Part shown: one piece after another, positions 3,326-62,243 of the stretch
How positions within the stretch are numbered: position 1 is the first letter of the stretch
Layout: each line of letters starts with the position of its first letter
Assembly (NCBI GenBank): GCA_038904395.1
Contig: JBCKKC010000001.1
Location: 25,759-89,758 of the forward strand
Direction of reading: 5' to 3'
Source: Acidimicrobiia bacterium
GTDB taxonomy: Bacteria > Actinomycetota > Acidimicrobiia > UBA2766
Length of the DNA stretch: 64,000 nucleotides
Translations under genes and position numbers: made by a program
The notes under the pieces: model-generated
Told to the model about the DNA's origin: nothing
The model's database searches: none
Seen by the model: only the letters and a program-made list of their open reading frames with translations

Positions 3326-5632
3326 CTATGGTCTGATGATTCTGATTTGGTTGTTGCCGGTGTCGGCGATTTTTAGGGTGTTGTCGGGAAGGACCTGTAC
3401 GTCTTGTGGGTAGTTAAAGCTGGCGTTTTGAGGGTTGCCGTTGTTCCTGATTTGGGTTGCTGGCATCGCGGCGTCTGCGGGGGGTGGTTGATTGCCCGTG
3501 CCGGCGAGGGTGGTGATTTTTCGATCCTGCGCTGAAGCGGCATGGTTGACGTAGCGGATGCGTTGATTGAGCGTGTCGGCTATGAATATGTCGCCGTCGC
3601 CGTCATCGTCTACCCCGACATCTTGGGGAATTGATAGTTTGGCCTGGTCTGCTTGACCGCCGTCTCCGGTGAATCCGCCAAGATTGTTGCGGTTGAAGGG
3701 TAGTGCGCTGGCGTCGGGCGGTAGGCCAGCCGGGTTGCCAGCCCAGTTCTCAATTCTGTCATCAGGAGTGACTTTGCGTATTAAGTGGTTGTAACTGTCG
3801 GCTAGGAAGATGGTTCCGTCTCGCATAACTGCTAGACCTAAGGGGTGGTTGAGTCTGGCTTGTGTCGCGGTTCCGCCGCCGTCGTCATAGCCGGGAGTGC
3901 CATCGCCAGCGAGAGTGATAACGTTGCTTGGCGTTCCGGCGGCGTCGACGCTGAAACGGATGATTTGGTGGTGTAGCCGGTCGGCGACGTAGACATCACC
4001 GTTGCGGTCTAGTCCGAGGCCCGACGGCTGATGTAGATTTGTTTGGTTTGCGGGGAGTTGTTGTGAGGAGTTCCTTGGCTCAGCGTGGCCTGTGCCTGCG
4101 ACGGTGGTGATATTTCCGCCTTCTGTGAACATGCGGATACGGTTGTTTCGGCTGTCTGAGAAGAAGATGCGGCCTGCGGGGTCGACTTCAATTCCCCAGG
4201 GGGCGTTGAGTTGGGCGGCTGTGGCTGGGCCTCCGTCGCCGCACGGGCTGGTTGCGAGTGGGCACTTAACACCCGCCGTGCCAGCTATGACGGTCTGAAC
4301 CCCACCGGGTGTAACTTTCACGATCGTGTCATTTTGCCGATTTGTCACATAAGTGTTGCTGGCAGCGTCAGTATCACTGCTAGAAGGCCAAGCAAACGGT
4401 AGTGGCGCAGCATTTGGACCTGGCCCTGACATCGCCGAAATGATGCCCGGGCCTTGGACGTGGTCGAAGCGGTCTCTGTCGGTGAGGCTTGAAAGAAATA
4501 CGTTACCTCGATTGTCTGCAGCGAGTCCGCTAATCTGGCCGAGGTCAGTGTTCAATGCGACACAACTGGAATTGGCACTTGGCTGGCAGCCAGAATTCGC
4601 TTGGCCAGGTGCGACTCCGGCGATATTTATAACCCGGTGATTGGATGAATTCAGCATTTGAACCGTGTGCTTGGGCCTATCAACCAGGTACAGATTATCT
4701 GCCTGATCTGTTGCTAAATCTGTGGGGCTTTCCAAGTCAAGGGTGAATGGCGCTTGCTGCAGAGCTCCCCTAATTTCTGCTCGGGCGTACGGGATAACTT
4801 CATCTGGCGGGTCGAAGTTACCTTGTCCTTTCCTGACTCTTAGGATCTGGCGATTATCGGTATCGGATATGTAGAGGCTTCCGTTGGAGTCAGTTGCTAA
4901 ACCCGAGGGATTCTTGAGCGCCAGTGGTTCCTTATTGGCCTTTGGGAGAGTGCTGATTCTCAAGTCCGTGCCTGCTGCGAGGGTTGGGGGACTAGTGACC
5001 ACGCGGACGTTATTCGCTTTAGGGTCTGCGATGAATAAGTAGCCGTTGTCGAATCGGGTAGCGTTGATTGCTGCTACCGCAACGGGCGTCTCGAATCGAG
5101 CATCTTGTGGCGGCCTACCATCACCGTTGCCTGCAAAGAAACCAGGCGTATCACCGTTGCCGGCGACATCGAAGATCTGTGGGGGTGTGCCAAGCGTCAC
5201 AAGTCTTACCCGTCGGTTGCCTGTGTCAGCTATATAGAGTTTGCCCGGATTTGTTCCGCTGGGCGGGAGAAACGCCAAACCCACTGGGTCTTTGAGTTCT
5301 GCGGTGAGGGGATTATTGTTGGCTCCGGCTGAGTAGCCGGCACTTCCTCGGATTCCAGCTAGGAGTGTGTACTGATTTGTTTGCTGCGAGTGTCGATAGA
5401 TGAGGCTCCCCGCAGTATCACTTACGAACGTATCGCCCGTGGTAGGATCCAGCGCTACCCCGGCCGGCTTTATATTCGTATTAGAGTTGACCTCAAATAT
5501 CTTCCCGTAGTCAATGATCCCTTGACTCTCGGCTTGAGGTGCCGGGGTGGGGGTAGGTTTTGTGGCGCAGGCCGCTACGAGCGCGAGAATGACGGCAATT
5601 GTTGAGGCGCTAACGACTCGTCTAGGAACCAT
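3326..5632 (-). CDS. NHL-repeat beta-propeller lipoprotein
   Basis: Signal peptide plus lipobox LVAAC. At least 10 NHL-type repeats are present (YIADTGNRRVRLV, YISDTDNRQILRV, FFSDSRNNRIRMF, VYVADRLHHQIIRF, IFLADSYNHLIRKV, IFIADTLNQRIRYV, LKIADTGNNQIRII). Confidence 0.85.
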   Translation of the reverse strand: MVPRRVVSASTIAVILALVAACATKPTPTPAPQAESQGIIDYGKIFEVNSNTNIKPAGVALDPTTGDTFVSDTAGSLIYRHSQQTNQYTLLAGIRGSAGYSAGANNNPLTAELKDPVGLAFLPPSGTNPGKLYIADTGNRRVRLVTLGTPPQIFDVAGNGDTPGFFAGNGDGRPPQDARFETPVAVAAINATRFDNGYLFIADPKANNVRVVTSPPTLAAGTDLRISTLPKANKEPLALKNPSGLATDSNGSLYISDTDNRQILRVRKGQGNFDPPDEVIPYARAEIRGALQQAPFTLDLESPTDLATDQADNLYLVDRPKHTVQMLNSSNHRVINIAGVAPGQANSGCQPSANSSCVALNTDLGQISGLAADNRGNVFLSSLTDRDRFDHVQGPGIISAMSGPGPNAAPLPFAWPSSSDTDAASNTYVTNRQNDTIVKVTPGGVQTVIAGTAGVKCPLATSPCGDGGPATAAQLNAPWGIEVDPAGRIFFSDSRNNRIRMFTEGGNITTVAGTGHAEPRNSSQQLPANQTNLHQPSGLGLDRNGDVYVADRLHHQIIRFSVDAAGTPSNVITLAGDGTPGYDDGGGTATQARLNHPLGLAVMRDGTIFLADSYNHLIRKVTPDDRIENWAGNPAGLPPDASALPFNRNNLGGFTGDGGQADQAKLSIPQDVGVDDDGDGDIFIADTLNQRIRYVNHAASAQDRKITTLAGTGNQPPPADAAMPATQIRNNGNPQNASFNYPQDVQVLPDNTLKIADTGNNQIRIIRP

Positions 5633-27600: not shown

Positions 27601-28522
27601 GGTTGACACAACGATCCAGCCCTCCGGTCCAACCATTTCAAAGCGCCAAGCGTGGTTTTTTGCGATACGCGTGCCCACCCTTGTCGCTGGGTTCGTGCCT
27701 GTCTTGGTGGGCAGCGCACTGGCGTTCAATCATGGCAGCTTCGCACCCCTGCTCGCTGCTCTCGCCCTCGTTGTGTCGATTGGCATCCAAATTGGAACCA
27801 ACCTCGCCAATGACTATTGGGATTTCAAGAAGGGCGCCGATACGGCCGCTCGGATTGGGCCCGTCCGGGTGACACAGGCCGGCCTGATCCCACCGTCTCA
27901 AACCCTTATCGCCATGATGGCTGCCTTCGGGACGGCCGCCCTCGCCGGCGTTGCCATTTGCGCCCTCACGAGTTGGCTCTATCTAGGGCTCGGGGTCGTG
28001 TGTGTTGCGTGCGGATTTCTTTACACTGCCGGCCCGAAGCCGATCGCATATATCGGACTCGGCGAACTGTTTGCGTTCGTCTTCTTCGGAGTTCTGGCGA
28101 CAACGGTCACCTATCAAATTCAAACAGGCCAGGTCAGCGCTGCGGCCTGGGTGTGTGGTTCGGCGATTGGAGCTTTCGCTGCGGCTCTCTTGGCTGTCAA
28201 CAATCTGCGTGATCTCGCCACCGACTGCGCTGCCGGCAAAATCACTCTCGCTGTACGATTCGGCCGCCAGGGGACGAAAGCACAAATCACCGGCCTGCTC
28301 GGCGGGGCCTTTCTCTTGGTCTTGCTCCTGGTAGTCGGCCGCCGCCTGCCTTTCGCCGCCCTAATAACTTGGGGAGCAATTCCGCTACTAGCTCCGGCGC
28401 TGAAGAGAGTCTGGCGTGATGATGGCTCCCGGCCCATGCACTTAATCCCAGCCCTCAAGTTCATCGCCCGCACCGAACTAGCCTTCGGCGTGCTGCTTAC
28501 GCTGGCTCTGCTTGTCTCCTGA
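27593..28522 (+). CDS. menA: 1,4-dihydroxy-2-naphthoate polyprenyltransferase MenA (UbiA family)
   Basis: NDYWDFKKGAD (NDxxDxxxD) motif, about 9 TM helices, and E. coli MenA-like N-terminus and length. Confidence 0.88.
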   Translation: MVMVDTTIQPSGPTISKRQAWFFAIRVPTLVAGFVPVLVGSALAFNHGSFAPLLAALALVVSIGIQIGTNLANDYWDFKKGADTAARIGPVRVTQAGLIPPSQTLIAMMAAFGTAALAGVAICALTSWLYLGLGVVCVACGFLYTAGPKPIAYIGLGELFAFVFFGVLATTVTYQIQTGQVSAAAWVCGSAIGAFAAALLAVNNLRDLATDCAAGKITLAVRFGRQGTKAQITGLLGGAFLLVLLLVVGRRLPFAALITWGAIPLLAPALKRVWRDDGSRPMHLIPALKFIARTELAFGVLLTLALLVS

Positions 28523-28524
28523 CG

Positions 28525-28775
28525 TACACACTTCCCCCTCCGTCATTTCGAGCAAAGCGAAGCAACGAAGCAACCCGGGCTTCGATGCTTGGCGAGCGTA
28601 GCTTGCAATTCAAATAGATCGAACATGTAGGTGGATCTGCGGCTTCGCCGCAGGTGGATCCTCACAGTCGGCTGACGCCTCCCTCAGGATGACGAACGGT
28701 GATGGGGACGTGGATTGCCACGCCCTGTCAAAGCCCAGGGCTCGCAATGACGGGATGGGGGACGTGAATGGCGAC
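28525..28775. mobile_element. MITE-like repeat element, compound copy E8
   Basis: Element body (..TTGCAATTCAAATAGATCGAAC..GGATCTGCGGCTTCGCCGCAGGTGGATCC..CCTCAGGATGACG) plus an extra right arm GGATTGCCACGCCCTGTCAAAGCCCAGGGCTCGCAATGACGG and terminal repeat GGGGGACGTGAATGGCGAC. Confidence 0.75.
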
Positions 28776-30513: not shown

Positions 30514-30627
30514 CACCCGTTCGGCTCAAACGCTCCAACCCACACATTATAGGCTATTTGAAACTCGACTTTCAATATATGGAGTGTCATATTGCGTGGA
30601 AAGCACGGGCACGCCCGGTACTGCTAT

Positions 30628-30680
30628 CGAGCTCCCGAGCTCCCGAGCTCCCGAGCTCCCGAGCTCCCGAGCTCCCGAGC
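30628..30680. repeat. octanucleotide microsatellite (CGAGCTCC)x6 plus partial unit
   Basis: Perfect tandem CGAGCTCC repeats in an intergenic position, 8 bp downstream of the E1 dehydrogenase stop. Confidence 0.9.
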
Positions 30681-30687
30681 CACCCGA

Positions 30688-32772
30688 CTAGTCAACGAGT
30701 TGGCGGATAGAGGCGGCGATCTTGTCGGGGCCGAAAAGGATTTCGTGTTCGAGAGCTGGAGCATACGGTAACGCGGGCACATCGGCTATGGCGAGACGCA
30801 GGATCGGGGCATCCAATGACCAGAAAAACCGCTCACCAATTTCGGCAGCGAGCTCGCCACCGAGGCCGCCCGTACGGTTGGCCTCGTGTACAACGATGAG
30901 TCGACCCGTGCGGGATACAGACTCCCCCACTAGCTCGTAATCGAGAGGGTAAAGGGTGCGCAGGTCGATCACTTCGCAGCTGATTCCCTCTTGTGCCAAC
31001 GTCTCTGCCGCTGCCACGCTATGGTGGCGCATCATGCCATAGGTGGCAACGGTTACGTCGGTGCCGGGGCAGACAATTTCGCCCTGTCCAATCGGAATCG
31101 ACCAGTCGCCCTCAGGAATGAAACCCGTGATGGCCCGGTAGCACTTCTTGTGTTCCAGAAACATGACCGGGTCGGGGTCCGCAATTGCTGAGCGGAGCAA
31201 CCCGACTGCATCCATCGGGGTTGAAGGGGCAACAACTTTGAGGCCAGGCACATGGCAAAACAGCGCCTCGATACACTGTGAATGATATAGGGCGCCATGA
31301 ATACCGCCGCCGTAGGGGGTGCGGATCACAATCGGGCAATTGAAATCGCCGTTAGACCGGTAGTGAATCTTGGCTGCTTCACTCAAAATCTGATCGAACG
31401 CGGAATGAATGAAGTCTATGAACTGGATCTCGGCAATAGGCCGGAGGCCGTCGAGGGCCATGCCGATAGCAGCACCTATGATGAGAGATTCAGCCAGTGG
31501 TGTGTCAAACACTCGGTCATCACCAAATTTGGCCGCCAACCCTTCAGTGCAGCCGAACACTCCCCCACGCACTCCGATGTCTTCACCCAAAATGACGGTA
31601 CGGTCATCCTTCTCGAGAATCTCAGCCAGCGTATCGTGGATTGCGGTAATCAGGTTTACTTTCGGTTCCTGATCAGCGCCTGGTGCGGGCGGTCCGCCTT
31701 TCGCCGACACTCGAGCCGAAACCGGCTCGGCAACGATGGGCTGAGCGTAAACGTGAAGGTAAGCGTCGGCGGGTTCGGGGTCGGGCGCTGCTGCAGCTTC
31801 TTTGGCGGCAAGCGCCACTTCTGCCGTGACGGACTCATCAATCTCGGTCGCGAGTTTTTCTGTCAGAACTCGCTCAGATATGAGCATCTGGGCCATGCGA
31901 TCTATGGGATCATGCTTGCGCCAAGCTGCCACCTCTTGGGCGCTGCGATAGGCCTTGTCGTTGTCATCAGAAGTATGACCCAAATAGCGGTAGGTGCGGG
32001 CCTCAATCAGGGTGGGGCCCTGACCGTTGCGGGCACGGGCCAGAGCGTCGCTGGTAACCGAATATACATCAAGCACGTTTTGGCCGTCTACGGCCAAGCC
32101 AGGCATGTTGTAGCCAATGGCCCGCAGCGAGAGGTCAGCCACAGCGCTCTGTTTCGACAGCGGCACCGAGATCGCGTATCCGTTGTTTTCGCACACAAAC
32201 ACAACTGGGAGTTTATGGATGCCGGCAAAGTTCAAAGCCTCATGAAAATCACCCTTGGAGGTTCCGCCTTCGCCGAACGAGCACAATACGACACCGGGCT
32301 GGTTGCGCAGCTTGCGGGCGTAAGCAATCCCTACCCCATGAGGGAGTTGAGTGGCGATCGGCGATGAACCCGTGATAATTCCAAGCCGCTTTGATCCCCA
32401 ATGGCTCGGCATCTGCTTGGCCCCACTGCTTGGGTCGTCCGCCTTGGCAAGTACTCCGAGAAGAATGTCCTTCGGGCTCATCCCCCGCGCCAGAACGGCT
32501 GCCATGTCACGATAGTAGGGACACAAAATGTCGTCATCGGCCATCGCCGATGCAAAACCGACTTGGGTCCCTTCGTGGCCTTGGGCAGACACCGCAAAGG
32601 CCGCTTTGCCTTGGCGTTGCAAGGTCCAGGCCCGCTCATCGACCCGGCGCGACAACAACATGTTTCTATACATGGCCAACAGCTCAGTTGAGCCGAGCCC
32701 TAGCTCCGCGGAGGACGCTATGCCCCCGGCGGGTATAAATGCTGCCGGAGATATTTTCTTGGCCTCGGGCAT
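30688..32772 (-). CDS. 2-oxo-acid (probably branched-chain) dehydrogenase E1 component, fused alpha-beta subunits
   Basis: N-terminal TPP-binding E1-alpha (GEGGTSKGDFHEALNFAG..VCENNGYAIS) and C-terminal E1-beta transketolase-like domain (EDIGVRGGVFG..TPLAE..). 694 aa. Confidence 0.85.
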   Translation of the reverse strand: MPEAKKISPAAFIPAGGIASSAELGLGSTELLAMYRNMLLSRRVDERAWTLQRQGKAAFAVSAQGHEGTQVGFASAMADDDILCPYYRDMAAVLARGMSPKDILLGVLAKADDPSSGAKQMPSHWGSKRLGIITGSSPIATQLPHGVGIAYARKLRNQPGVVLCSFGEGGTSKGDFHEALNFAGIHKLPVVFVCENNGYAISVPLSKQSAVADLSLRAIGYNMPGLAVDGQNVLDVYSVTSDALARARNGQGPTLIEARTYRYLGHTSDDNDKAYRSAQEVAAWRKHDPIDRMAQMLISERVLTEKLATEIDESVTAEVALAAKEAAAAPDPEPADAYLHVYAQPIVAEPVSARVSAKGGPPAPGADQEPKVNLITAIHDTLAEILEKDDRTVILGEDIGVRGGVFGCTEGLAAKFGDDRVFDTPLAESLIIGAAIGMALDGLRPIAEIQFIDFIHSAFDQILSEAAKIHYRSNGDFNCPIVIRTPYGGGIHGALYHSQCIEALFCHVPGLKVVAPSTPMDAVGLLRSAIADPDPVMFLEHKKCYRAITGFIPEGDWSIPIGQGEIVCPGTDVTVATYGMMRHHSVAAAETLAQEGISCEVIDLRTLYPLDYELVGESVSRTGRLIVVHEANRTGGLGGELAAEIGERFFWSLDAPILRLAIADVPALPYAPALEHEILFGPDKIAASIRQLVD

Positions 32773-34085: not shown

Positions 34086-34285
34086 CAACCATTCACGTCC
34101 CCCCCTCCGTCATTGCGAGCCCTGGCTCTGCAGGGCGTGGCAATCCAGGCTTTAAAAGCTGCGAGCGCAGCTCGCTGTCGAAACCAGGGACACCCCGGTC
34201 ACCCCGAACGTCCATTTGGAATTGCTCGCTACGCTCGCAAAGCAGTAAAGCCTGGATTGCTTCGCTCCGCTCGCAATGACGGCGA
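34086..34285. mobile_element. MITE-like repeat element, copy E10
   Basis: CAACCATTCACGTCC terminus, CGTCATTGCGAGCCCTGGCTCTGCAGGGCGTGGCAATCCAGGCTTTAAAAG, TTGGAATTGCTCGCTACGCTCGCAAAGC, and ..GCTCGCAATGACGG. Confidence 0.8.
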
Positions 34286-38211: not shown

Positions 38212-38295
38212 GTAGTCCGTCCACGGTCAGAAGGTGAGTCCACAATCCCAGGCTAGTTGACGGGCTGCGACCGAGAACACGCACAATACTGGGTA

Positions 38296-38545
38296 GCCAT
38301 TCACGTCCCCCACCCACCCCGTCATCCTGAGCCCTGGGCTTTGACAGGGCGTGAGGATCCAGGCTTTAAATATTTGCGAGCGAAGCGAGCAATTCGGAAT
38401 GGATCGAATCTACGGCTGGGCCCTGCGGCTTCGCCCCTCACTGTCGGCTGGCGCCTCCCTCAGGGCAGGCTCCGGATGGATCCTCACGCCCTGCCAAAGC
38501 CCAGGGCTCAGGATGACGAAAGGCCTGGTAATGGCCTTCCGTCGG
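38296..38545. mobile_element. MITE-like repeat element, compound copy E12
   Basis: GCCATTCACGTCC terminus, CGTCATCCTGAGCCCTGGGCTTTGACAGGGCGTGAGGATCC, TTGCGAGCGAAGCGAGCAATTCGGAA, and an extra GGATGGATCCTCACGCCCTGCCAAAGCCCAGGGCTCAGGATGACG arm. Confidence 0.75.
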
Positions 38546-38614
38546 TGGGGGTCCTGAATCGGCGACTCGGCTAGTATGCGACGCAGTGTCTGGCGAATCA
38601 GGGGAGCACGCGCT

Positions 38615-41180: not shown

Positions 41181-43505
41181 ATGAAGACTCTGTTGGTTGC
41201 GAATCGCGGCGAGATTTGCCAGCGGATAATGGTGACAGCTCAATCGATGGGGATCCGCTGTGTTGCTGCCTATTCTGATTCTGATGCCCACGGCCCGTTC
41301 GTCACCCAAGCCGACCTGGCCGTAGCTCTCGGCGGTACACATCCACGTGATTCTTACCTGAGCATTGACAAAATTCTCGCAGCCGCCCACTCAAGTGGGG
41401 CTGATGCAATCCATCCCGGCTATGGCTTCTTAAGCGAAAATGCCGATTTTGCCCAGGCGTGTCTTGATGCCGGTATCACCTTCGTGGGACCAACTCCTGA
41501 AGCAATTCGGATAATGGGCAACAAGCTGACAGCAAAAGAGCTTGTCCGCCCACTGAAGGTCCCAACCCTCGAGAGCGTCACTGTAACTGACGACCCCGGA
41601 GACTGGCTAGCCGCTGCTGAAGCTATGAAATTTCCCGTCTTAGTGAAGGCTGCTGCCGGTGGTGGCGGCCGAGGCATGCGAATAGTTGATGCGCCAGCCG
41701 ATCTAGCCGAGTCTATTGAGAGTGCCCAACGTGAAGCAGAGGCCGGTTTTGGTAACAGTTCTGTCTTTATCGAGCCATATTTGCCAAACTCCCGCCACAT
41801 CGAGGTTCAAGTCTTTGGTGACACCCGGGGAAATCTCGTTCACCTCTTTGAGCGTGAGTGTTCAATCCAACGGCGTCACCAGAAAGTGATTGAAGAGAGC
41901 CCCTCAATTGTTCTCTCGGCTGAGACTCGCAAGGCAATGACAGATGCAGCCCTGGCTGTGGCAGCGTCGGTGAAATATGTCGGAGCTGGAACGGTTGAGT
42001 TTTTGGTTGATGGGACGGACTTCTATTTTCTCGAAATGAACACTCGACTCCAAGTTGAGCATCCCGTCACCGAGATGCTGACTGGACTCGATCTGGTTCG
42101 CTGGCAGCTAGAGGTGGCTCAGCAGTTGCCATTGCCGCTCACCCAAAGCGAGATTGTGAGCAACGGTCATGCAATAGAGGCTCGACTCTGCGCCGAGATT
42201 CCTGAGCAAGACTTCCTTCCGACGACCGGCCACTTTCACCGCTATTGGCATAGACAACCCGAGGGGGTGCGCTTTGACGACGGGGTCATTTCGGGAAGCC
42301 AGATGTCGAGCCACTACGACAACCTGCTTGCCAAAGTTGTAGCCCATGGGGAATCACGCCCCGAAGCCATCGCCCGATTGATTCGAGCCTTGCAGACAAT
42401 GCAGTTGCATGGTGTGGCCACAAACCGTGATTACTTGGTGGCGATCCTACAAACCGAAGAGTTCCAACGGGGCGAAACACCGACCACTTTCCTAGAACGG
42501 AATAGTGACAAGGTACTGGGCAATGTCGCCAGGATGTCTGCGCCGCTGACAGCGGCACCGAGTGTCGACACCGACACTCGGCCTGATGCGCCCGATGCCG
42601 AGCAGGGCGAACGCCCCTCCGGGGATCGTTCCCTGCACGCCAGCGCTGCGGCCATCTTTATGGCATTGCGTCGCAAAGCCGACTCTCCGACACAGTCCTT
42701 TGCTCCGCTCGGTTGGCGCAATATGCCGAGCCAGCCGAACACATGCCAATTCAGTCACGTCGACACGTTGTCGCGATCAGAACACATATATTCGGTCAGC
42801 TATTCGATGGATCGAAACGGCGATTTTCACGTGAGTTGCGACCGGGCGATAGACGACGGGGTGGCGACCGCTGAGAGCACTGCCAGCGACCCCGTCAAGG
42901 TTGCCCCGACCCCGACCCCGACCGAGAAGGTCAGAGTTGCTTTTTTCCCGTCATTGCGAGGAGGCGTTAGCCGACGAAGCAACCTAGTCCATGACTCACG
43001 TCACGAAGACACAGGTCACGGACTAGGTTGCTTCGCTTCGCTCGCAATGACGGGGGAGGAACGTGGGTGGTTACCTACGAACTGTGGGGAAATTACGCTC
43101 GAGGTCGGCGGGGTCCGTCAGCACTTCTTCGTCAACATCGTCGGCGACAATGTGTACATCAACGACGACCAGTGCCAAAGCGATTTTCGTTCATTGGGCC
43201 GCCCAGGCGAGGGCGCATCCGCTCAGACCAAGCAACTAGCAAGCACTGCCGGCCCAACTTCGCCGATGCCTGGCCAGATCGTTGCCGTTGAAGTTAGTCT
43301 CGGCGACTCGGTCACAGCAGGACAAACCTTAGTAATCCTCGAAGCCATGAAAATGGAGCACCGCATCGAAGCAGCCGCCGACTCTATCGTCGCTGAAATT
43401 CACGTCGAAACAGGTCAATCCGTTGATGCACATCAACCGTTGATTACCCTCGGCCCCCCTTTAGACTCAGCTCCAGTCATCACAAACGAGGTCGAAAATG
43501 CCTGA
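41181..43505 (+). CDS. acyl-CoA carboxylase alpha subunit (biotin carboxylase + BCCP), carrying an in-frame MITE-derived insert
   Basis: MKTLLVANRGEI.., an ATP-grasp biotin carboxylase domain, and a C-terminal biotinyl domain EAMKMEH. It is about 100 aa longer than typical because of the linker insert. Confidence 0.85.
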   Translation: MKTLLVANRGEICQRIMVTAQSMGIRCVAAYSDSDAHGPFVTQADLAVALGGTHPRDSYLSIDKILAAAHSSGADAIHPGYGFLSENADFAQACLDAGITFVGPTPEAIRIMGNKLTAKELVRPLKVPTLESVTVTDDPGDWLAAAEAMKFPVLVKAAAGGGGRGMRIVDAPADLAESIESAQREAEAGFGNSSVFIEPYLPNSRHIEVQVFGDTRGNLVHLFERECSIQRRHQKVIEESPSIVLSAETRKAMTDAALAVAASVKYVGAGTVEFLVDGTDFYFLEMNTRLQVEHPVTEMLTGLDLVRWQLEVAQQLPLPLTQSEIVSNGHAIEARLCAEIPEQDFLPTTGHFHRYWHRQPEGVRFDDGVISGSQMSSHYDNLLAKVVAHGESRPEAIARLIRALQTMQLHGVATNRDYLVAILQTEEFQRGETPTTFLERNSDKVLGNVARMSAPLTAAPSVDTDTRPDAPDAEQGERPSGDRSLHASAAAIFMALRRKADSPTQSFAPLGWRNMPSQPNTCQFSHVDTLSRSEHIYSVSYSMDRNGDFHVSCDRAIDDGVATAESTASDPVKVAPTPTPTEKVRVAFFPSLRGGVSRRSNLVHDSRHEDTGHGLGCFASLAMTGEERGWLPTNCGEITLEVGGVRQHFFVNIVGDNVYINDDQCQSDFRSLGRPGEGASAQTKQLASTAGPTSPMPGQIVAVEVSLGDSVTAGQTLVILEAMKMEHRIEAAADSIVAEIHVETGQSVDAHQPLITLGPPLDSAPVITNEVENA
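42947..43075. mobile_element. MITE-like element (short palindromic variant) inserted in-frame in the carboxylase alpha linker, copy E13
   Basis: CCGTCATTGCGAGGAGGCGTTAGCCGACGAAGCAACCTAGTCC ... GGACTAGGTTGCTTCGCTTCGCTCGCAATGACGG, then GGAACGTGGGTGGTTAC. No stop codon. Encodes ..SLRGGVSRRSNLVHDSRHEDTGHGLGCFASLAMTGEERGW.. Confidence 0.75.
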
Positions 43506-43521: not shown

Positions 43522-43753
43522 GTAACCATTCACGTCCCCTCAGTCCGAGGGGTGCTACCAGGCCTTCGTCATTGCGAGCCCTGGGCTCTGGCAGGGCGTG
43601 GCAATCCAGACTTTGCTATGTTGCGAGCGCAGCGAGCAATTCAAAATGGTTCGATCATGCGGGTGGTCTGCGGCTTCGCCACAGGATGGATCCTCACGCC
43701 CTGGCTGACGCCAGGGCTCAGGATGACGGGAAGAGGGAGCTGAATGGTTAAAC
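43522..43753. mobile_element. MITE-like repeat element, copy E14 (full length, accA-atuA spacer)
   Basis: GTAACCATTCACGTCC .. CGTCATTGCGAGCCCTGGGCTCTGGCAGGGCGTGGCAATCC .. TTGCGAGCGCAGCGAGCAATTCAAAA .. GGTCTGCGGCTTCGCCACAGGATGGATCC .. CAGGGCTCAGGATGACGGGAAGAGGGAGCTGAATGGTTAAAC. The atuA ATG lies inside the right terminal repeat. Confidence 0.8.
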
Positions 43754-45603
43754 CGTTGCGTATCGCAAACTGCAGCGGCTTTTACGGTGACCGATTGTCG
43801 GCAGCTCAAGAGATGGTCACCGGCGGGCCGATTGACGTTCTGACGGGCGATTGGCTGGCTGAGCTGACCATGCTGATCTTGGCCAAGGACCGGATGAAGG
43901 ATCCAGCACGTGGCTATGCAAAGACGTTTCTTAAACAGCTTGAAGTTGTCTTGGGGACCTGTCTCGATAGCGGGATTCGAATTGTGAGCAATGCCGGAGG
44001 GCTTAACCCGGCCGGCTGCGCGGAAGCTATTAGCGAGCTGGCTCAGCGCCTGGGACTTACCCCTACGGTGGCTTTCGTGGGCGGCGACGATCTGATCGGC
44101 CAACTCGACCAGCTTCAGGCCAGCGGCGAGGAGTTGATCAACCTGGATACAGGCGAACACTGGGCCCAGATGGGCAAAGCGCCCATAACAGCCAATGCTT
44201 ACCTGGGCAGCTGGGGAATCAGCACCGCTCTGGGCCAAGGGGCGGATGTAGTCGTGACAGGCCGAGTGACAGACGCATCGCTTGTTGTTGGGCCAGCAGC
44301 GTGGCACTTTGACTGGGCTCATGACGACTGGGATCAACTCGCGGGCGCTATCGTTGCCGGCCACGCAATCGAGTGTGGCACTCAAGTGACGGGCGGAAAC
44401 TATTCGTTCTTCGACGAAATCCCTAACGCTCACAGATGCGGTTTCCCGATAGCCGAAGTGTTCAGCAACGGGTCATCGATCATTACAAAACATCCCGGCA
44501 CCGGTGGGGCTGTCTCGATAGGCACAGTAACAGCCCAGTTGGTTTACGAGATTGCTAGTCCGAGTTACGCCAATCCCGATGCCACTGCCCTTTTCGATAC
44601 AATCACCCTCGAAACAGTTGGCCCCGATCGGGTGCAAATTTCGGGGGTGCGGGGCACGCCACCGTCGCCAGACCTCAAGGTGGGCATCAACTATTTGGCC
44701 GGGTTTCGCAACTCGATGACGTTCTTGCTCACGGGGCTGGACATCAGCGAAAAGGCCCAACTCGCCCAAGATAGCCTGTGGGCTCAGTTCCCCGAAGGCC
44801 CGAACCATTTCGAATCAGTTTCTGTAGACCTCATCGACTCCGCCCGGCCAAACCCGCCAAGCAATCAAGACGCAATTTCGTCCCTGCGGGTGACGGTCTC
44901 AGATCCTGATGCAAGCAAGGTGGGGCGGGCTTTTTCATCAAAAGTCGTCGAGCTCGCCCTCGCTAGCTATCCGGGCTTTACCCTCACCACTCCCCCGCAA
45001 GACTCGACCCCATACGGAATTTTTTGGCCCACAACCATTGACCGCAGTCACGTAGATGAATTCGTCGAAATCGGTGGAACTCGCTACCCAATTAGCCATC
45101 CGCCTGCCCCCATGCAGTCATTGCGAGCGAAGCGAGCAATTCTCCCCCGTCATCCTGAGCCCTGGCGCCAGCCAGGGCGTGAGGATCCAGGAATCCGAAT
45201 TTTGCGAGCGAAGCGAGCAAGTCGAAACGGATCCCGAGACCTGCCACTCGGAGTGGTCATGGGCGCGCGTTCCGGCGACAAGGGTGGAAACGCTAACATT
45301 GGCGTGTGGACTTCCGATGTCCGCTGTTATGAATGGCTCGACGATTTTCTGTCGATCGACAAGTTGAGGGAGCTAATGCCCGAGACAAAGTCCCTCGAAA
45401 TTCATCGCTACAGGTTGGCCAACCTTAACGCCCTCAACTTTGTCGTTGTTGGTCTCCTCGGCCGTGGCGTCGCAGCCTCAACCCGTATCGATCCTCAAGC
45501 AAAGGGCCTGGGCGAATACTTGCGAGCAAAAGTGGTGCCGCTACCGGTCGAGCTGCTGTCAGATGCAGGCAAGAAGGGTCTACCGACGCAGGCCGCTGAC
45601 TAG
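43744..45603 (+). CDS. AtuA-family (acyclic terpene utilisation, DUF1446 + C-terminal domain) protein, carrying an in-frame MITE-derived insert
   Basis: N-terminus ..LRIANCSGFYGDR.. and C-terminal ..ARSGDKGGNANIGVW.. are typical of AtuA. A 40-codon insert lies between the two conserved regions. Confidence 0.7.
   Translation: MVKPLRIANCSGFYGDRLSAAQEMVTGGPIDVLTGDWLAELTMLILAKDRMKDPARGYAKTFLKQLEVVLGTCLDSGIRIVSNAGGLNPAGCAEAISELAQRLGLTPTVAFVGGDDLIGQLDQLQASGEELINLDTGEHWAQMGKAPITANAYLGSWGISTALGQGADVVVTGRVTDASLVVGPAAWHFDWAHDDWDQLAGAIVAGHAIECGTQVTGGNYSFFDEIPNAHRCGFPIAEVFSNGSSIITKHPGTGGAVSIGTVTAQLVYEIASPSYANPDATALFDTITLETVGPDRVQISGVRGTPPSPDLKVGINYLAGFRNSMTFLLTGLDISEKAQLAQDSLWAQFPEGPNHFESVSVDLIDSARPNPPSNQDAISSLRVTVSDPDASKVGRAFSSKVVELALASYPGFTLTTPPQDSTPYGIFWPTTIDRSHVDEFVEIGGTRYPISHPPAPMQSLRAKRAILPRHPEPWRQPGREDPGIRILRAKRASRNGSRDLPLGVVMGARSGDKGGNANIGVWTSDVRCYEWLDDFLSIDKLRELMPETKSLEIHRYRLANLNALNFVVVGLLGRGVAASTRIDPQAKGLGEYLRAKVVPLPVELLSDAGKKGLPTQAAD
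45113..45233. mobile_element. MITE-like element fragment inserted in-frame in atuA, copy E15
   Basis: GTCATTGCGAGCGAAGCGAGCAATTC then CCCCGTCATCCTGAGCCCTGGCGCCAGCCAGGGCGTGAGGATCCAGGAATCCGAATTTTGCGAGCGAAGCGAGCAAGTC, which is identical to the left half of copy E6. Translated as ..MQSLRAKRAILPRHPEPWRQPGREDPGIRILRAKRASRNGSRD.. Confidence 0.8.
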
Positions 45604-46795: not shown

Positions 46796-46989
46796 CCACA
46801 CTCCGTCATTGCGAGGAACGAAGCAATCCAGGTTTTACAGTCTTGCGAGCGCAGCGAGCAAATTCAAATGGATCGAGTCTGATGATAGAGGCCTGCTCGC
46901 TACGCTCGCAGAATATTTAAAGTCTAGATTGCCACGCCCTGTCAAAGCCCAGGGCTCGCAATGACGGGGTGGGGGACGTGAATGGTTAC
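46796..46989. mobile_element. MITE-like repeat element, copy E16
   Basis: CCGTCATTGCGAGGAACGAAGCAATCCAGG .. TTGCGAGCGCAGCGAGCAAATTCAAA .. AGATTGCCACGCCCTGTCAAAGCCCAGGGCTCGCAATGACGG .. GGGGGACGTGAATGGTTAC. Confidence 0.8.
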
Positions 46990-48672: not shown

Positions 48673-48759
48673 TATGCGCCAATCCCCCCGGTATGAAATA
48701 CCAGGGAAGTGTAGCCGGTCGGGCCAGCACCCCGTGGCGAGAGTGTCGCTACCAGCTTT

Positions 48760-49024
48760 ACGTCATTGCGAGGAGCCAGAGGCCACGCACGACCCCAATC
48801 GCGGAGACACTCCAACCCTCCCGTCATTGCGAGCCCTGGCTCTGCAGGGCGAAGCAATCCAGACTTTAAATATTTGCGAGCGCAGCTCGCAATTCAAAAT
48901 CGATCGAACAGTCGGTTGGTCTGCGGCTTCGCCGCAGGTGGATCCTCACGGTCGCTGCGCTCCCTCAGGATGACGAGAGGGGGGGTAGCCCCCCTCAGGA
49001 TGACGGGAGGGGTGAATGGCTACC
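48760..49024. mobile_element. MITE-like repeat element, compound copy E17
   Basis: Two left arms (CGTCATTGCGAGGAGCCAGAGG.., CGTCATTGCGAGCCCTGGCTCTGCAGGGCG..), centre TTTGCGAGCGCAGCTCGCAATTCAAAA, ..GGTCTGCGGCTTCGCCGCAGGTGGATCC.., a duplicated CCCTCAGGATGACG end, and terminal repeat GGGGTGAATGGCTAC. Confidence 0.8.
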
Positions 49025-49037
49025 GGCTGGGTCCACC

Positions 49038-50750
49038 CTAGGCAGCAACCTGAACGATGCGGCTGCGGCGCACATCGTCTTTGTAGTTGGCCCGAATTTT
49101 GCGCAGCTCAGATTTCACTACCTTACGCCGGACGGCCTCATCGCCGATAATTTCCGCCAATCCCTTGATCTCTGCGGCGAGGGCTGCGAATTCTGCGCGC
49201 AGCTGGCTGCCTTCGAGGTTGGTTAGCTTGCGTAGTTGCATGTCGACGATAGCTTGGGCTTGGACTTCGTCAATCGTCAACAGTTCTTGCAAAGCCGTTT
49301 TGGCAGCAGGCACATCCGGAGACCGCTTGATGGTCGCAATGACCTCATCGATGGCATCCAACGCTTTGATCAGCGCACTGACAATGTGTTGTCGCGCTTG
49401 GGCCTTGCCGAGTCGAAACTGGGAGCGGCGCAGCACGACTTCCATGCGGTGGTCACAAAATGCCGACAAGATGTCGACCACGGTGCAAATTCTGGGCACT
49501 CCGTCAACAAGCGCCCGCATACCCACCGAAAAATTATCTTCGAGGCGGGTGAGCGTGTAGAGCTCGGCAAGAGTCGCCGCTGGATCCTGACCCCGCTTCA
49601 CGATTACTTGCAGCTCCTGGCCGGTCTTGTCGGTAGCGTCAATGACGTCTGACACTCCTTGCAGTCGCCCCTTCTTCACGTATGCCACAATCGCTTCGGC
49701 AACGTCAGCAACGGAAACCGACGGAGGCAGGCTGCGGAAACTGAGCTTACTGGCCCCACGTGTGTGGGACTCTTGACTAACTCGGGCCCGCAGTTTAATG
49801 CGTCCCTGGCCACTCGAATAAGCAGCGACGATCCCGTTCGCCTCAGCCCCGGCATCGACTTGGGGCTTTGGCTTGCCACGCTTGGTTGTCTTCGAATCGC
49901 CAAACTCGGGAATGATGTCACAGCCTGTGGCAAAGTCGGGCCCGGGCAATTTGGCCATTATTTGCTTGATCGAAGCCTGCGGTTTATCCAGAATCAGCAA
50001 GACCGCATCGATCACCTCGAGCGGATTGTGCGGAGGGATGTTGGTTGCCATCCCCACTGCAATACCTGCCGCGCCGTTGACTAAGAGCTGGGGAAATGCT
50101 GCTGGCAGTACTGTCGGTTCTTTGCTTTCGCCGTCATAGTTGGGGACGAAGTCGACCGTGCCTTCTTCGATGTCGGCCAGCAGGGCCATTCCGGTCTCAG
50201 ACATTCGGCACTCTGTGTAGCGCATCGCAGCCGGCGGAAAACTGGGCGAGCCAAAGTTGCCTTGGCCATCAATCAAGGGCACATATTGAGAGAAGGGTTG
50301 GGCCATGCGCACGAGAGCATCGTAGATAGCTTGATCACCGTGAGGGTGATATAGACCCATTACCTCACCCACCACCTTGGCACACTTGCGAAAAGGTCCG
50401 GGCGGCCGCACGCCACTAGTATGCATACCCCACAGAATCCGCCGCTGGACCGGTTTCAGACCGTCACGCACATCAGGTAACGCCCTAGCAACGATGACCG
50501 ACATCGAGTACTCAAGATAGGAGTCTTCCATCTCGCGGGTAAGCTCACGGGTCTCGATGGCGAGGCTGCGATTGCTCGTATCGCCTCGAGTGCGCCCAGC
50601 CTTGACACGGGGCCTTTTCGGCGCCGGAGGCTCAACCAGCCCGGAGGGTTCAGCCAGGTCGGAAGGATCGGGTGAACCAGGCGACTCCTCGGCCTCATCC
50701 ACAACATCAAATAGCGTGGCGTCACCGCCCTTGTTCTTGCCTTTGGACAT
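49038..50750 (-). CDS. type IIA topoisomerase A-subunit homolog lacking the C-terminal beta-pinwheel domain (TopoM-like)
   Basis: GyrA/ParC N-terminal breakage-reunion domain with the active-site AMRYTE tyrosine, tower and coiled-coil, ending at about residue 570 with no CTD. It has a 70 aa acidic/Pro-rich N-terminal extension. Confidence 0.8.
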   Translation of the reverse strand: MSKGKNKGGDATLFDVVDEAEESPGSPDPSDLAEPSGLVEPPAPKRPRVKAGRTRGDTSNRSLAIETRELTREMEDSYLEYSMSVIVARALPDVRDGLKPVQRRILWGMHTSGVRPPGPFRKCAKVVGEVMGLYHPHGDQAIYDALVRMAQPFSQYVPLIDGQGNFGSPSFPPAAMRYTECRMSETGMALLADIEEGTVDFVPNYDGESKEPTVLPAAFPQLLVNGAAGIAVGMATNIPPHNPLEVIDAVLLILDKPQASIKQIMAKLPGPDFATGCDIIPEFGDSKTTKRGKPKPQVDAGAEANGIVAAYSSGQGRIKLRARVSQESHTRGASKLSFRSLPPSVSVADVAEAIVAYVKKGRLQGVSDVIDATDKTGQELQVIVKRGQDPAATLAELYTLTRLEDNFSVGMRALVDGVPRICTVVDILSAFCDHRMEVVLRRSQFRLGKAQARQHIVSALIKALDAIDEVIATIKRSPDVPAAKTALQELLTIDEVQAQAIVDMQLRKLTNLEGSQLRAEFAALAAEIKGLAEIIGDEAVRRKVVKSELRKIRANYKDDVRRSRIVQVAA

Positions 50751-59053: not shown

Positions 59054-59127
59054 GCTCGAGTAGCTCAGTTGGCTAGAGCGCTGCCCTTACAAGGCAGATG
59101 TCGGGGGTTCGAGTCCCTCCTCGAGCA
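59054..59127 (+). tRNA. tRNA-Val (anticodon TAC)
   Basis: Cloverleaf with acceptor GCTCGAG/CTCGAGC, D-arm TAGCTCAGTTGGCTAGAGC, anticodon stem CTGCC/GGCAG with loop CTTACAA, T-arm GGGGGTTCGAGTCCCTC, discriminator A, and an encoded CCA. Confidence 0.85.
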
Positions 59128-59134
59128 CCATTTC

Positions 59135-59360
59135 CCCTCCGTTATTGCGAGCGTAGCGAGCAATTCGAAACTGACCCACCGTATCAGTTGGTCTGCGGCT
59201 TCGCCGCAGGTGGATCCTCACGGTCGCCTAGCGGCTCCCTCAGGATGACGAACGGGGGGGGCTTCGCCCCTCCCGCTGCACTCACGACTTGCTCGGGGGC
59301 AGGCTCTGCTTCGCTACGCTCGCAATGAGTGAGGGGCGGCTGGGCCGCCCCTCACTGTAC
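59135..59360. mobile_element. MITE-like repeat element, copy E18 (immediately 3' of tRNA-Val), ending in a 12-bp GC hairpin
   Basis: CCGTTATTGCGAGCGTAGCGAGCAATTCGAAA .. GGTCTGCGGCTTCGCCGCAGGTGGATCC .. CCCTCAGGATGACG .. TTCGCTACGCTCGCAATGAGTGAGGGGCGGCTGGGCCGCCCCTCAC. Confidence 0.75.
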
Positions 59361-62075: not shown

Positions 62076-62243
62076 TCACGTCCTCCGTCATCCTGAGCCC
62101 TGGCGCCAGCCAGGGCGTGGGGATCCATCTGTGGCGAAGCCGCAGGTCCACCCTAAGATTCGATCCATTTTGAATTGCTCGCTGCGCTCCCAACACAGTA
62201 AAGTCTGGATTGCTTCGTTCCTCGCAATGACGATCGTGGTTAC
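62069..62243. mobile_element. MITE-like repeat element, copy E20 (in the gatA-gatB spacer)
   Basis: CACCATTCACGTCC terminus (contains the gatB start codon on the minus strand), CGTCATCCTGAGCCCTGGCGCCAGCCAGGGCGTGGGGATCC, CTGTGGCGAAGCCGCAGGTCCACC, TTTTGAATTGCTCGCTGCGCTCCCAA, and ..CGCAATGACGATCGTGGTTAC. Confidence 0.8.

Follow-up and report, generated by a model that had tools for sequence, protein, structure and literature searches.

A palindromic repeat lying in frame within an acyl-CoA carboxylase alpha-subunit gene of an Acidimicrobiia bacterium, probably a tolerated insertion of selfish DNA

The window analysed here is a 64-kb stretch of DNA from an Acidimicrobiia bacterium (GenBank assembly GCA_038904395.1, contig JBCKKC010000001.1, positions 25,759 to 89,758 of the forward strand), and all copy counts and repeat comparisons given below were made within it. 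The gene at 41181-43505 encodes the alpha subunit of a biotin-dependent acyl-CoA carboxylase, and it contains a 129-bp palindromic element, at 42947-43075, that keeps the reading frame of the gene and has no stop codon in it. The ends of the element are those of a modular repeat with about 21 copies in the window, and its two arms are built like the CGTC-tagged repetitive extragenic palindromic (REP) sequences of other bacteria. We consider it probable that this is selfish DNA, inserted at a permissive site and tolerated there. In-frame palindromic repeats within genes are already well documented and the present case belongs to that kind. The novelty lies in the lineage of the host, in the composite build of the repeat, and in an insertion site that is defined structurally.

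An initial annotation, made from the nucleotide sequence alone, had described a stop-free palindromic element in this gene and taken it for a short variant of a repeat found elsewhere in the window. The sequence that it quoted was found at 42947-43075, and both parts of the description held. The element consists of the following parts.

42947 to 43075, plus strand: in-frame palindromic element of 129 bp, an inverted dimer of two CGTC-tagged units with a type-1 outer flank, encoding residues ~589/590 to 631
42949 to 42986, plus strand: left CGTC unit, CGTC-ATTGC-GAGGAGGCGTTAGCCGACGAA-GCAAC-CTA, with the same layout of tag, 5-bp stem, structured loop, stem, and tail as 32 units of the window
42987 to 43023, no strand assigned: spacer, GTCCATGACTCACGTCACGAAGACACAGGTCACGGAC, partly self-complementary, particular to this copy, and placed at the top of the predicted hairpin
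43024 to 43052, minus strand: right CGTC unit, which reads CGTC-ATTGC-GAGCGAAGCGAA-GCAAC-CTA on the minus strand
43053 to 43074, plus strand: type-1 outer flank of 22 nucleotides, GGGGAGGAACGTGGGTGGTTAC, for which the family consensus is GGGGTGGGGGACGTGAATGGTTAC

Two inverted repeats, both perfect, make up the palindrome. The outer one is 14 bp long (CCCGTCATTGCGAG at 42947-42960 and CTCGCAATGACGGG at 43041-43054), and the inner one is 15 bp long (GAAGCAACCTAGTCC at 42976-42990 and GGACTAGGTTGCTTC at 43020-43034). The predicted RNA fold of the region 42940-43085 has a free energy of -85.4 kcal/mol, compared with a mean of -44.5 kcal/mol for shuffled sequences (z = -10.8), and none of 200 shuffles folded as well. 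Folded as DNA, the same region gave -47.7 kcal/mol (z = -9.8).

The relationship of the element to the repeat family lies in its ends. When the element was compared by BLASTN with the remainder of the window, 65 matches were returned, and the strongest (E values from 1e-6 to 1e-3) all fell on the termini of other copies, of which about 20, mostly intergenic, share these ends. The right unit matches termini at 34252-34282 (90% over 31 nucleotides), 28526-28566 (86% over 42 nucleotides), and 62205-62232, as seen by BLASTN and in an alignment of termini. In the alignment of 42 termini, the right end of the element fits the terminus variant GGATTGCTTCGCTCCGCTCGCAATGACGG, and the loop of the left unit resembles the GGAGGCGCTAGCCGAC loop variant present at 1566, 12059, and 26425. 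The tail that follows the right end matches, in reverse complement, the type-1 outer flank of the family, GTAACCATTCACGTCCCC..., for which the same alignment gave a reverse-complement consensus of GTAACCATTCACGTCCCCCACCCC followed by GTCAT. Within the window, BLASTN matched this flank to 46954-46989, 25272-25313, and 28740-28771. Both units of the carboxylase copy carry a change, reading GCAAC-CTA in place of the GCAAT-CCA of the family, which breaks the first stem pair and alters the tail. The change is symmetrical, being present in both arms.

The family itself is abundant in the window. Its approximately 21 copies are 150 to 250 bp in length, occupy about 6% of the 64 kb, or roughly one copy per 3 kb, and are up to 94 to 96% identical to each other. 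Units were located with a regular expression consisting of CGTC, the pattern AT-NNN...NNN-AT, and a 3-nucleotide tail, which found 32 units in the window and 0 to 2 in shuffled sequence. The tag is CGTC in 31 of the 32 units and TGTC in the other; the tail is CCA in 31 of the 32, and CTA in both units of the carboxylase copy. The stems covary perfectly, with ATCCT pairing with AGGAT in 17 units, ATTGC with GCAAT in 15, and no mixed pairs. The perfect basal stem is 5 bp long and encloses a segment of 10 to 27 nucleotides that usually forms a hairpin of its own, for example, GCCCTGG...CCAGGGC. Every composite copy has one CGTC unit at each end, in opposite orientations, and the two stem types often occupy the opposite ends of a single copy, so that such copies are heterodimers. 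No Rfam family other than a tRNA was matched in the window, and the 12-mer termini of the family were not found among the top-ranked matches of a literature text search.

Eighteen of the 21 copies are intergenic, mostly 3 to 40 bp from gene ends and in many cases near a stop codon. One more overlaps the probably over-called N-terminal region of a sulfotransferase ORF, and the other two are internal to genes, in frame, and in regions of low constraint. Over 16 copies, 20 of 96 reading frames are free of stop codons (21%), compared with 17% in shuffled sequences, and a family adapted for coding was rejected on that account. Open frames at close to the shuffled level fit a survival filter acting after random insertion rather than adaptation to coding. 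The proposal of the initial annotation that the family can be exapted into proteins was not borne out by this count, and no function was indicated for the insert.

The gene that holds the element is as follows.

41181 to 43505, plus strand: alpha subunit of a biotin-dependent acyl-CoA carboxylase, 774 amino acids (aa), with biotin carboxylase (BC), BT, and biotin carboxyl carrier protein (BCCP) domains, similar to the methylcrotonyl-CoA (MCC), geranyl-CoA (GCC), and propionyl-CoA (PCC) carboxylases and lying in an atu/liu-like cluster

The open reading frame (ORF) is uninterrupted through all 775 codons, including those of the element. One of the six frames of the element lacks a stop codon, and it is the frame in use. 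The residues encoded, ~589/590 to 631, read (F)PSLRGGVSRRSNLVHDSRHEDTGHGLGCFASLAMTGEERGWL. Peptides that span the junctions of the insert include VAFFPSLR and GWLPTNCGEITLEVGGVR, and the empty site would be predicted to read ...GTTGCTTTTTT(C) joined to CTACGAACTGTGGGG. In an alignment with 74 homologues, residues 589 to 631 fall in columns that are 0 to 10% occupied over most of the insert, which is the lineage-specific indel that the initial annotation had expected from such a comparison. The segment from GWRN to P695 measures 184 aa in this protein, against a median of 105 aa and a maximum of 166 aa in the 75-sequence alignment. The same annotation had put the protein at about 100 residues longer than typical alpha subunits. 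The length is right, at 774 aa against a typical 650 to 680 aa in homologues, but the element accounts for only 43 of the surplus of approximately 100 residues. It was asked whether three further segments of that surplus (aa 446 to 482, 555 to 588, and ~679 to 690) are decayed copies; they had no DNA similarity to the repeat family.

Pfam places Biotin_carb_N, CPSase_L_D2, and Biotin_carb_C at residues 2 to 440 and Biotin_lipoyl at residues 693 to 757. The closest solved sequence is 3u9s, the MCC alpha subunit of Pseudomonas aeruginosa. No NCBIfam equivalog reached its cutoff with the protein, and no substrate is assigned. The neighboring genes encode a carboxyltransferase subunit, an AtuA protein, and an acyl-CoA dehydrogenase, all intact by Pfam, and this company identifies an atu/liu-like catabolic cluster. 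The protein has lost none of the residues that are invariant in the 75-sequence alignment, and it also keeps the biotinylation site, AMK, at K724 within an EAMKME motif (residues 721 to 726). The retention of these residues argues that the carboxylase gene is functional, and the protein is presumably expressed and active.

The position of the insert in the fold was taken from an AlphaFold (AF2) model built from the 75 sequences, with a predicted local distance difference test (pLDDT) score of 84 and a predicted template modeling (pTM) score of 0.85. Between the BC and BCCP domains, the model has a long helix (residues 481 to 501) and eight beta-strands (between residues 520 and 672). A helix with an eight-stranded barrel is the layout of the BT (BC-carboxyltransferase interaction) domain in PCC and MCC structures. 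Foldseek aligned the model over its full length, about 770 columns, with MCC and PCC alpha chains, giving target-normalized template modeling (TM) scores of up to 0.86 (0.81 to the top match). The protein possesses the BC, BT, and BCCP domains and the AMKM biotin site of an alpha subunit of the MCC, PCC, or GCC type. The insert lies between strands 584-590 (VRVAFFP, starting within KVRVAFF) and 635-642 (EITLEVGG), and pLDDT is below 50 for residues 592 to 625. The model predicts it to be a disordered loop that joins strands 4 and 5 in the barrel of the BT domain. The initial annotation had assigned it to an interdomain linker; it is indeed between the BC and BCCP domains, but both AlphaFold and Foldseek place the loop inside the BT domain rather than in a plain linker. 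Loop length at this site varies among homologues, with inserts of up to ~36 aa. One homologue (P0013) has 36 extra residues at this position; a parallel palindromic insertion was considered for them and dismissed, as their DNA contained no inverted repeat and its fold was no better than that of shuffled sequence (z = -0.1). With a length that differs between lineages and a nonpalindromic insert in P0013, the loop is simply permissive.

A second copy had been claimed in the neighboring gene, and it is present there in frame, reduced to its left half. A further, full-length copy lies between the two genes.

45116 to 45235, plus strand: second in-frame copy, 120 bp, truncated to the left half, encoding residues 458 to 497 (40 aa) of AtuA (43744-45603)
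43547 to 43755, no strand assigned: full-length intergenic copy between the carboxylase and AtuA genes, with a type-1 flank that holds the AtuA start codon at 43744

Over 89 nucleotides, the copy in AtuA shares 96% identity with the left half of the one at 26263-26351. Pfam assigns AtuA to residues 5 to 442 and AtuA_ferredoxin to residues 503 to 595, and the repeat-derived residues fall between these domains, in a poorly conserved and variable linker that spans 30 to 57 aa in 23 homologues. Forty residues are repeat-derived, though the linker is only about 12 to 20 aa longer than is typical, and the right half of the repeat is missing. The small net gain together with the missing half suggests an insertion and then a deletion that took away some of the element along with some of the former linker. 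The G+C content at third codon positions (GC3) is 0.475 in this insert and 0.63 in the remainder of the gene, with only 0.2% of gene windows lower, and this is a mark of noncoding origin. The N terminus of AtuA aligns with homologues from M1.

We propose the following history for these copies. The 129 bases in the carboxylase gene are a copy of a nonautonomous palindromic repeat, composed of an inverted dimer of CGTC-tagged, REP-like stem-loops and a spacer. The family would have spread through the intergenic DNA of this Acidimicrobiia genome, and one copy would have landed in the alpha-subunit gene. Three circumstances would account for its survival there: a length divisible by three, a frame of entry without a stop codon, and a position in a surface loop, between BT strands 4 and 5, that already varies in length among homologues. 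The enzyme would most likely still be made at full length, with a disordered excursion of 43 residues, and the insert would be tolerated rather than useful. The copy in the AtuA linker may have taken the same route, with deletion afterward.

Several observations weigh against a tolerated insertion of selfish DNA. The central 37 to 41 nucleotides of the element have no BLASTN match elsewhere in the window, and the exact short variant is not repeated elsewhere within it. No direct repeat or target-site duplication flanks the copy, and Pfam detected no transposase, Y1, or REP-associated tyrosine transposase (RAYT) protein among the 37 long ORFs of the window. The GC3 of the insert, 0.50 compared with 0.59 for the gene, is not distinctive. 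The best homologues of the alpha subunit are 44 to 60% identical, with none above 60% among 5.8 billion proteins, the exact protein was not found in an index of contigs, and the 25-nucleotide left flank of the element was not found in metagenome contigs. Arrival by insertion is thus inferred from repeat homology and the pattern of the indel, no empty site having been seen. Lastly, few copies of the family have kept their hairpin as well as this one (-0.61 kcal/mol per nucleotide, z = -10.3), and this could fit either a recent insertion or selection on the structure.

The last point bears on the suggestion that the insert has been exapted, either at the protein level, as a new surface of the BT domain in contact with the carboxyltransferase, or at the RNA level, as a very stable hairpin in the operon transcript that modulates how long the mRNA lasts or how its BCCP end is translated. 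In favor of such a role, the hairpin is intact and one of the most stable in the family, copies are present in two adjacent genes of one catabolic cluster, and REPs are thought to work as RNA elements (PMC3733652). However, the insert is modeled as disordered, the family shows no enrichment for open frames, and the same loop varies freely in homologues, another lineage having a nonpalindromic insert there. There is no terminator-like or promoter-like site at the element. Internal restart of translation from its type-1 flank was rejected, because the ATG and GTG in that flank, read from the sequence, are out of frame and a restart would not give a BCCP domain. We regard exaptation as unlikely.

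The repeat might instead mark a chimeric join in a metagenome-assembled genome (MAG), or a gene undergoing inactivation, with a frame left open by chance. Repeats are classic sites of misassembly, the exact protein was found once, on a single 115-kb NCBI contig, and five of the six frames of the element are closed. Against this, the sequences to the two sides of the element code for successive strands of a single BT barrel, with an intact BCCP domain after them, the residues invariant across 75 sequences are all kept, the carboxyltransferase, AtuA, and acyl-CoA dehydrogenase genes around the element are intact, and the 129-bp length preserves the frame. An artifact or a dying gene seems to us quite improbable. 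Less credible is a native loop, in which the 43 residues would be ordinary lineage-specific protein sequence and the resemblance to the repeats a coincidence, or a relationship running in the reverse direction. The variation in loop length among homologues, with inserts of up to ~36 aa, and the unmatched center of the element would agree with such an origin. But each end has its counterpart in the termini of about 20 further copies, the outer flank specific to the family is present, and perfect complementarity of 14- and 15-bp arms is not explained by constraint on a protein; we give this origin hardly any weight. Tolerated insertion of selfish DNA remains the reading that we prefer.

Searches beyond the window bear on how widely the repeat occurs. 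A scan of a genome collection with a 20-nucleotide motif of the family gave four single matches. One, in a Stellaceae MAG (JBGPOZ010000158.1; L001, 1630-1715), is a CGTC unit, two are chance matches in coding sequence, and the fourth is in L003. The Stellaceae sequence is a simple palindrome of the CGTC type, CCGTCGTTGCGAGCGCAGCGAAGCAACCCAGG...GGATTGCTTCGCCCAGGGCTCGCAATGACG. Since this palindrome belongs to an alphaproteobacterial MAG, the ATTGC/GCAAT type of unit is not confined to one phylum. A metagenome scan with the CGTC-unit pattern matched at least 120 contigs, and BLAST among the matches listed found only single units of 26 to 45 nucleotides. Composite copies were absent from the matches listed in both the genome- and metagenome-collection scans, and the composite family seems, from these sequence comparisons, to be specific to this lineage. 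As to what that lineage is, the best named matches of a gyrase-B-like protein in the window are 71% identical and come from MAGs labeled Acidimicrobiia and "Actinobacteria bacterium ATB1," and named relatives of the alpha subunit are actinobacterial too, these being best matches and not a phylogeny.

A search of a protein database with both insert peptides gave two candidates and a single match, P0122, encoded on another NCBI contig. The host proteins themselves, P0001 (the alpha subunit) and P0121 (AtuA), were not among the matches, so the search is uninformative on absence. P0122 carries the peptide RSNLVRDLRFRGASHGLGCFPSL, which resembles the insert in the carboxylase, and a related short variant therefore exists elsewhere. 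P0122 and an ORF at 38257-38574 (plus strand) are examples of ORFs of about 100 aa that lie wholly over repeat copies and are likely spurious gene calls.

The repeats also border on, or overlap, the starts of several genes in the window. In the type-1 flank (...GACGGGGTGGGGGACGTGAATGGTTAC), a stretch that is rich in purines and resembles a Shine-Dalgarno sequence precedes an ATG. Three real genes have this ATG as their first start codon, a sulfotransferase at 25302 (flank at 25289-25313), a UbiA prenyltransferase at 27593 (27581-27605), and AtuA at 43744 (43727-43755). On these sequence features, the repeat may donate translation start signals to downstream genes. We have also entertained a broader interpretation, in which the composite CGTC-REP dimers of this Acidimicrobiia bacterium form a family that is specific to its lineage, has recently been active, and is reshaping genes in three ways, by adding loops to enzyme domains (the carboxylase BT domain), by replacing linkers (AtuA), and by donating a stretch like a ribosome-binding site together with an ATG (25302, 27593, and 43744). 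This is a tentative idea, and on balance a doubtful one. As the copies are dense and up to 94 to 96% identical, the full genome could, on this interpretation, reveal the enzyme that moves CGTC repeats, a question that has been open since 2013.

Other features were noted near repeat copies. Three sulfotransferase-family genes are adjacent to each other (24247-26216 and 22054-24216), with repeat copies between them, and NHL and teneurin-NHL repeat proteins are encoded nearby at 3326-5632 and 18312-22181. The copy at 24030-24205 falls within the first ~65 codons of the ORF at 22054-24216 (minus strand, 720 aa), in which the sulfotransferase domain begins at residue 71; the start of this ORF is probably over-called, with the repeat upstream of the true start. 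A GyrA/ParC-like ORF at 49038-50750 (minus strand, 570 aa) has the DNA_topoisoIV domain and no C-terminal beta-pinwheel domain, and it may be either a short, atypical topoisomerase subunit or a truncation. A 291-bp cluster of repeats (48740-49030) adjoins its stop codon. At 30623-30688, about seven 8-bp tandem units (GCTCCCGA) lie beside a repeat copy, just 3' of the stop codon of an E1 dehydrogenase gene (30688-32772, minus strand). The copy at 59132-59265 starts two bases past the 3' end of a tRNA-Val(TAC) gene (59054-59130).

Palindromic selfish DNA that survives in frame shows how proteins acquire loops and linkers, and which sites tolerate them. The present case adds a free-living-type host from the Acidimicrobiia, a defined site between BT strands 4 and 5, and a second event in the adjacent gene; the known workings of such elements are unchanged by it. 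There are also effects on annotation, in that the repeats create spurious ORFs and over-extended N termini and may supply start codons.

The closest known relatives in architecture are the CGTC-tagged REPs, in which the CGTC tag is unpaired, the stem opens with an A-T and a T-A pair, and the tail reads CCA (Di Nocera, De Gregorio and Rocco 2013, BMC Genomics 14:522; PMC3733652). They form inverted dimers with conserved, structured spacers, they have no known dedicated transposase, and among the members of the superfamily are RPE-4 and RPE-6 of Rickettsia and dRS3 of Neisseria (PMC3733652). In-frame intragenic REPs of the GTAG and CGTC types number in the dozens in several species and encode 20 to 82 aa (PMC3733652). 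The family described here likewise has the CGTC tag at one end of each unit, the AT start of the stem, and the CCA tail. It also forms inverted dimers, most of which occupy intergenic sites close to the 3' ends of genes while a few lie in frame within a gene, and no transposase gene was seen nearby in the 64-kb window. There are differences, however. The published stems are 8 to 9 bp with loops of 4 to 5 nucleotides, as against 5 bp and hairpin loops of 10 to 27 nucleotides here, although some CGTC families have other loop lengths (PMC3733652). The composites here are 150 to 250 bp long with additional conserved outer flanks, and the copy in the carboxylase gene has the GCAAC-CTA form, with its altered first stem pair and tail. 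The host, too, is different, being actinobacterial: CGTC repeats were reported from Proteobacteria, Chlorobi, Bacteroidetes, Spirochaetes, and Thermotogae, with no mention of Actinobacteria (PMC3733652). In a literature search combining Acidimicrobiia with REP, MITE (a miniature transposable element with inverted repeats), or REPIN (REP doublet forming a hairpin), no top-ranked match mentioned Acidimicrobiia.

REPINs and bacterial interspersed mosaic elements (Bertels and Rainey 2011, PMC3116915; Nunvar et al. 2010, PMC2817692) are similar in having an inverted pair of REPs with a spacer, a single long hairpin, and many copies. They are GTAG tagged and linked to RAYTs, whereas the tag here is CGTC and the window has no RAYT. 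Bacterial MITEs, for example, those of Coxiella burnetii, resemble the repeat in being small and nonautonomous, in having terminal inverted repeats, and in adding coding sequence (PMC5896051; reviews PMC3184786 and PMC10969869). They differ in that no duplication of the target site was found for the repeat, nor, in the 64 kb, a parent insertion sequence whose ends match. A GTAG-1 REP dimer in MDS_1390 of Pseudomonas mendocina (Additional file 3, PMC3733652) is also in frame in a protein with a biotin carboxylation domain. It differs in belonging to the GTAG superfamily, in encoding 20 aa, and in its host, another protein, of 1231 aa.

The Rickettsia palindromic elements (RPEs) are the systems to which the initial annotation had likened the insert, and the likeness is upheld in both behavior and tag, the insertion being in frame and the units sharing the CGTC tag, AT stem start, and CCA tail of the superfamily of RPE-4 and RPE-6. 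RPEs are reportedly palindromic selfish repeats that lie in frame within intact genes, as described by Ogata et al. in 2000 and 2002. For one of them, in the guanylate kinase of Rickettsia conorii, the enzyme has reportedly been compared with and without the insert. The repeat described here differs from them in host and probably in sequence, and its copies are mostly intergenic with no bias toward open frames. What the two share is an in-frame palindromic repeat that adds tens of residues to a protein at a permissive surface site.

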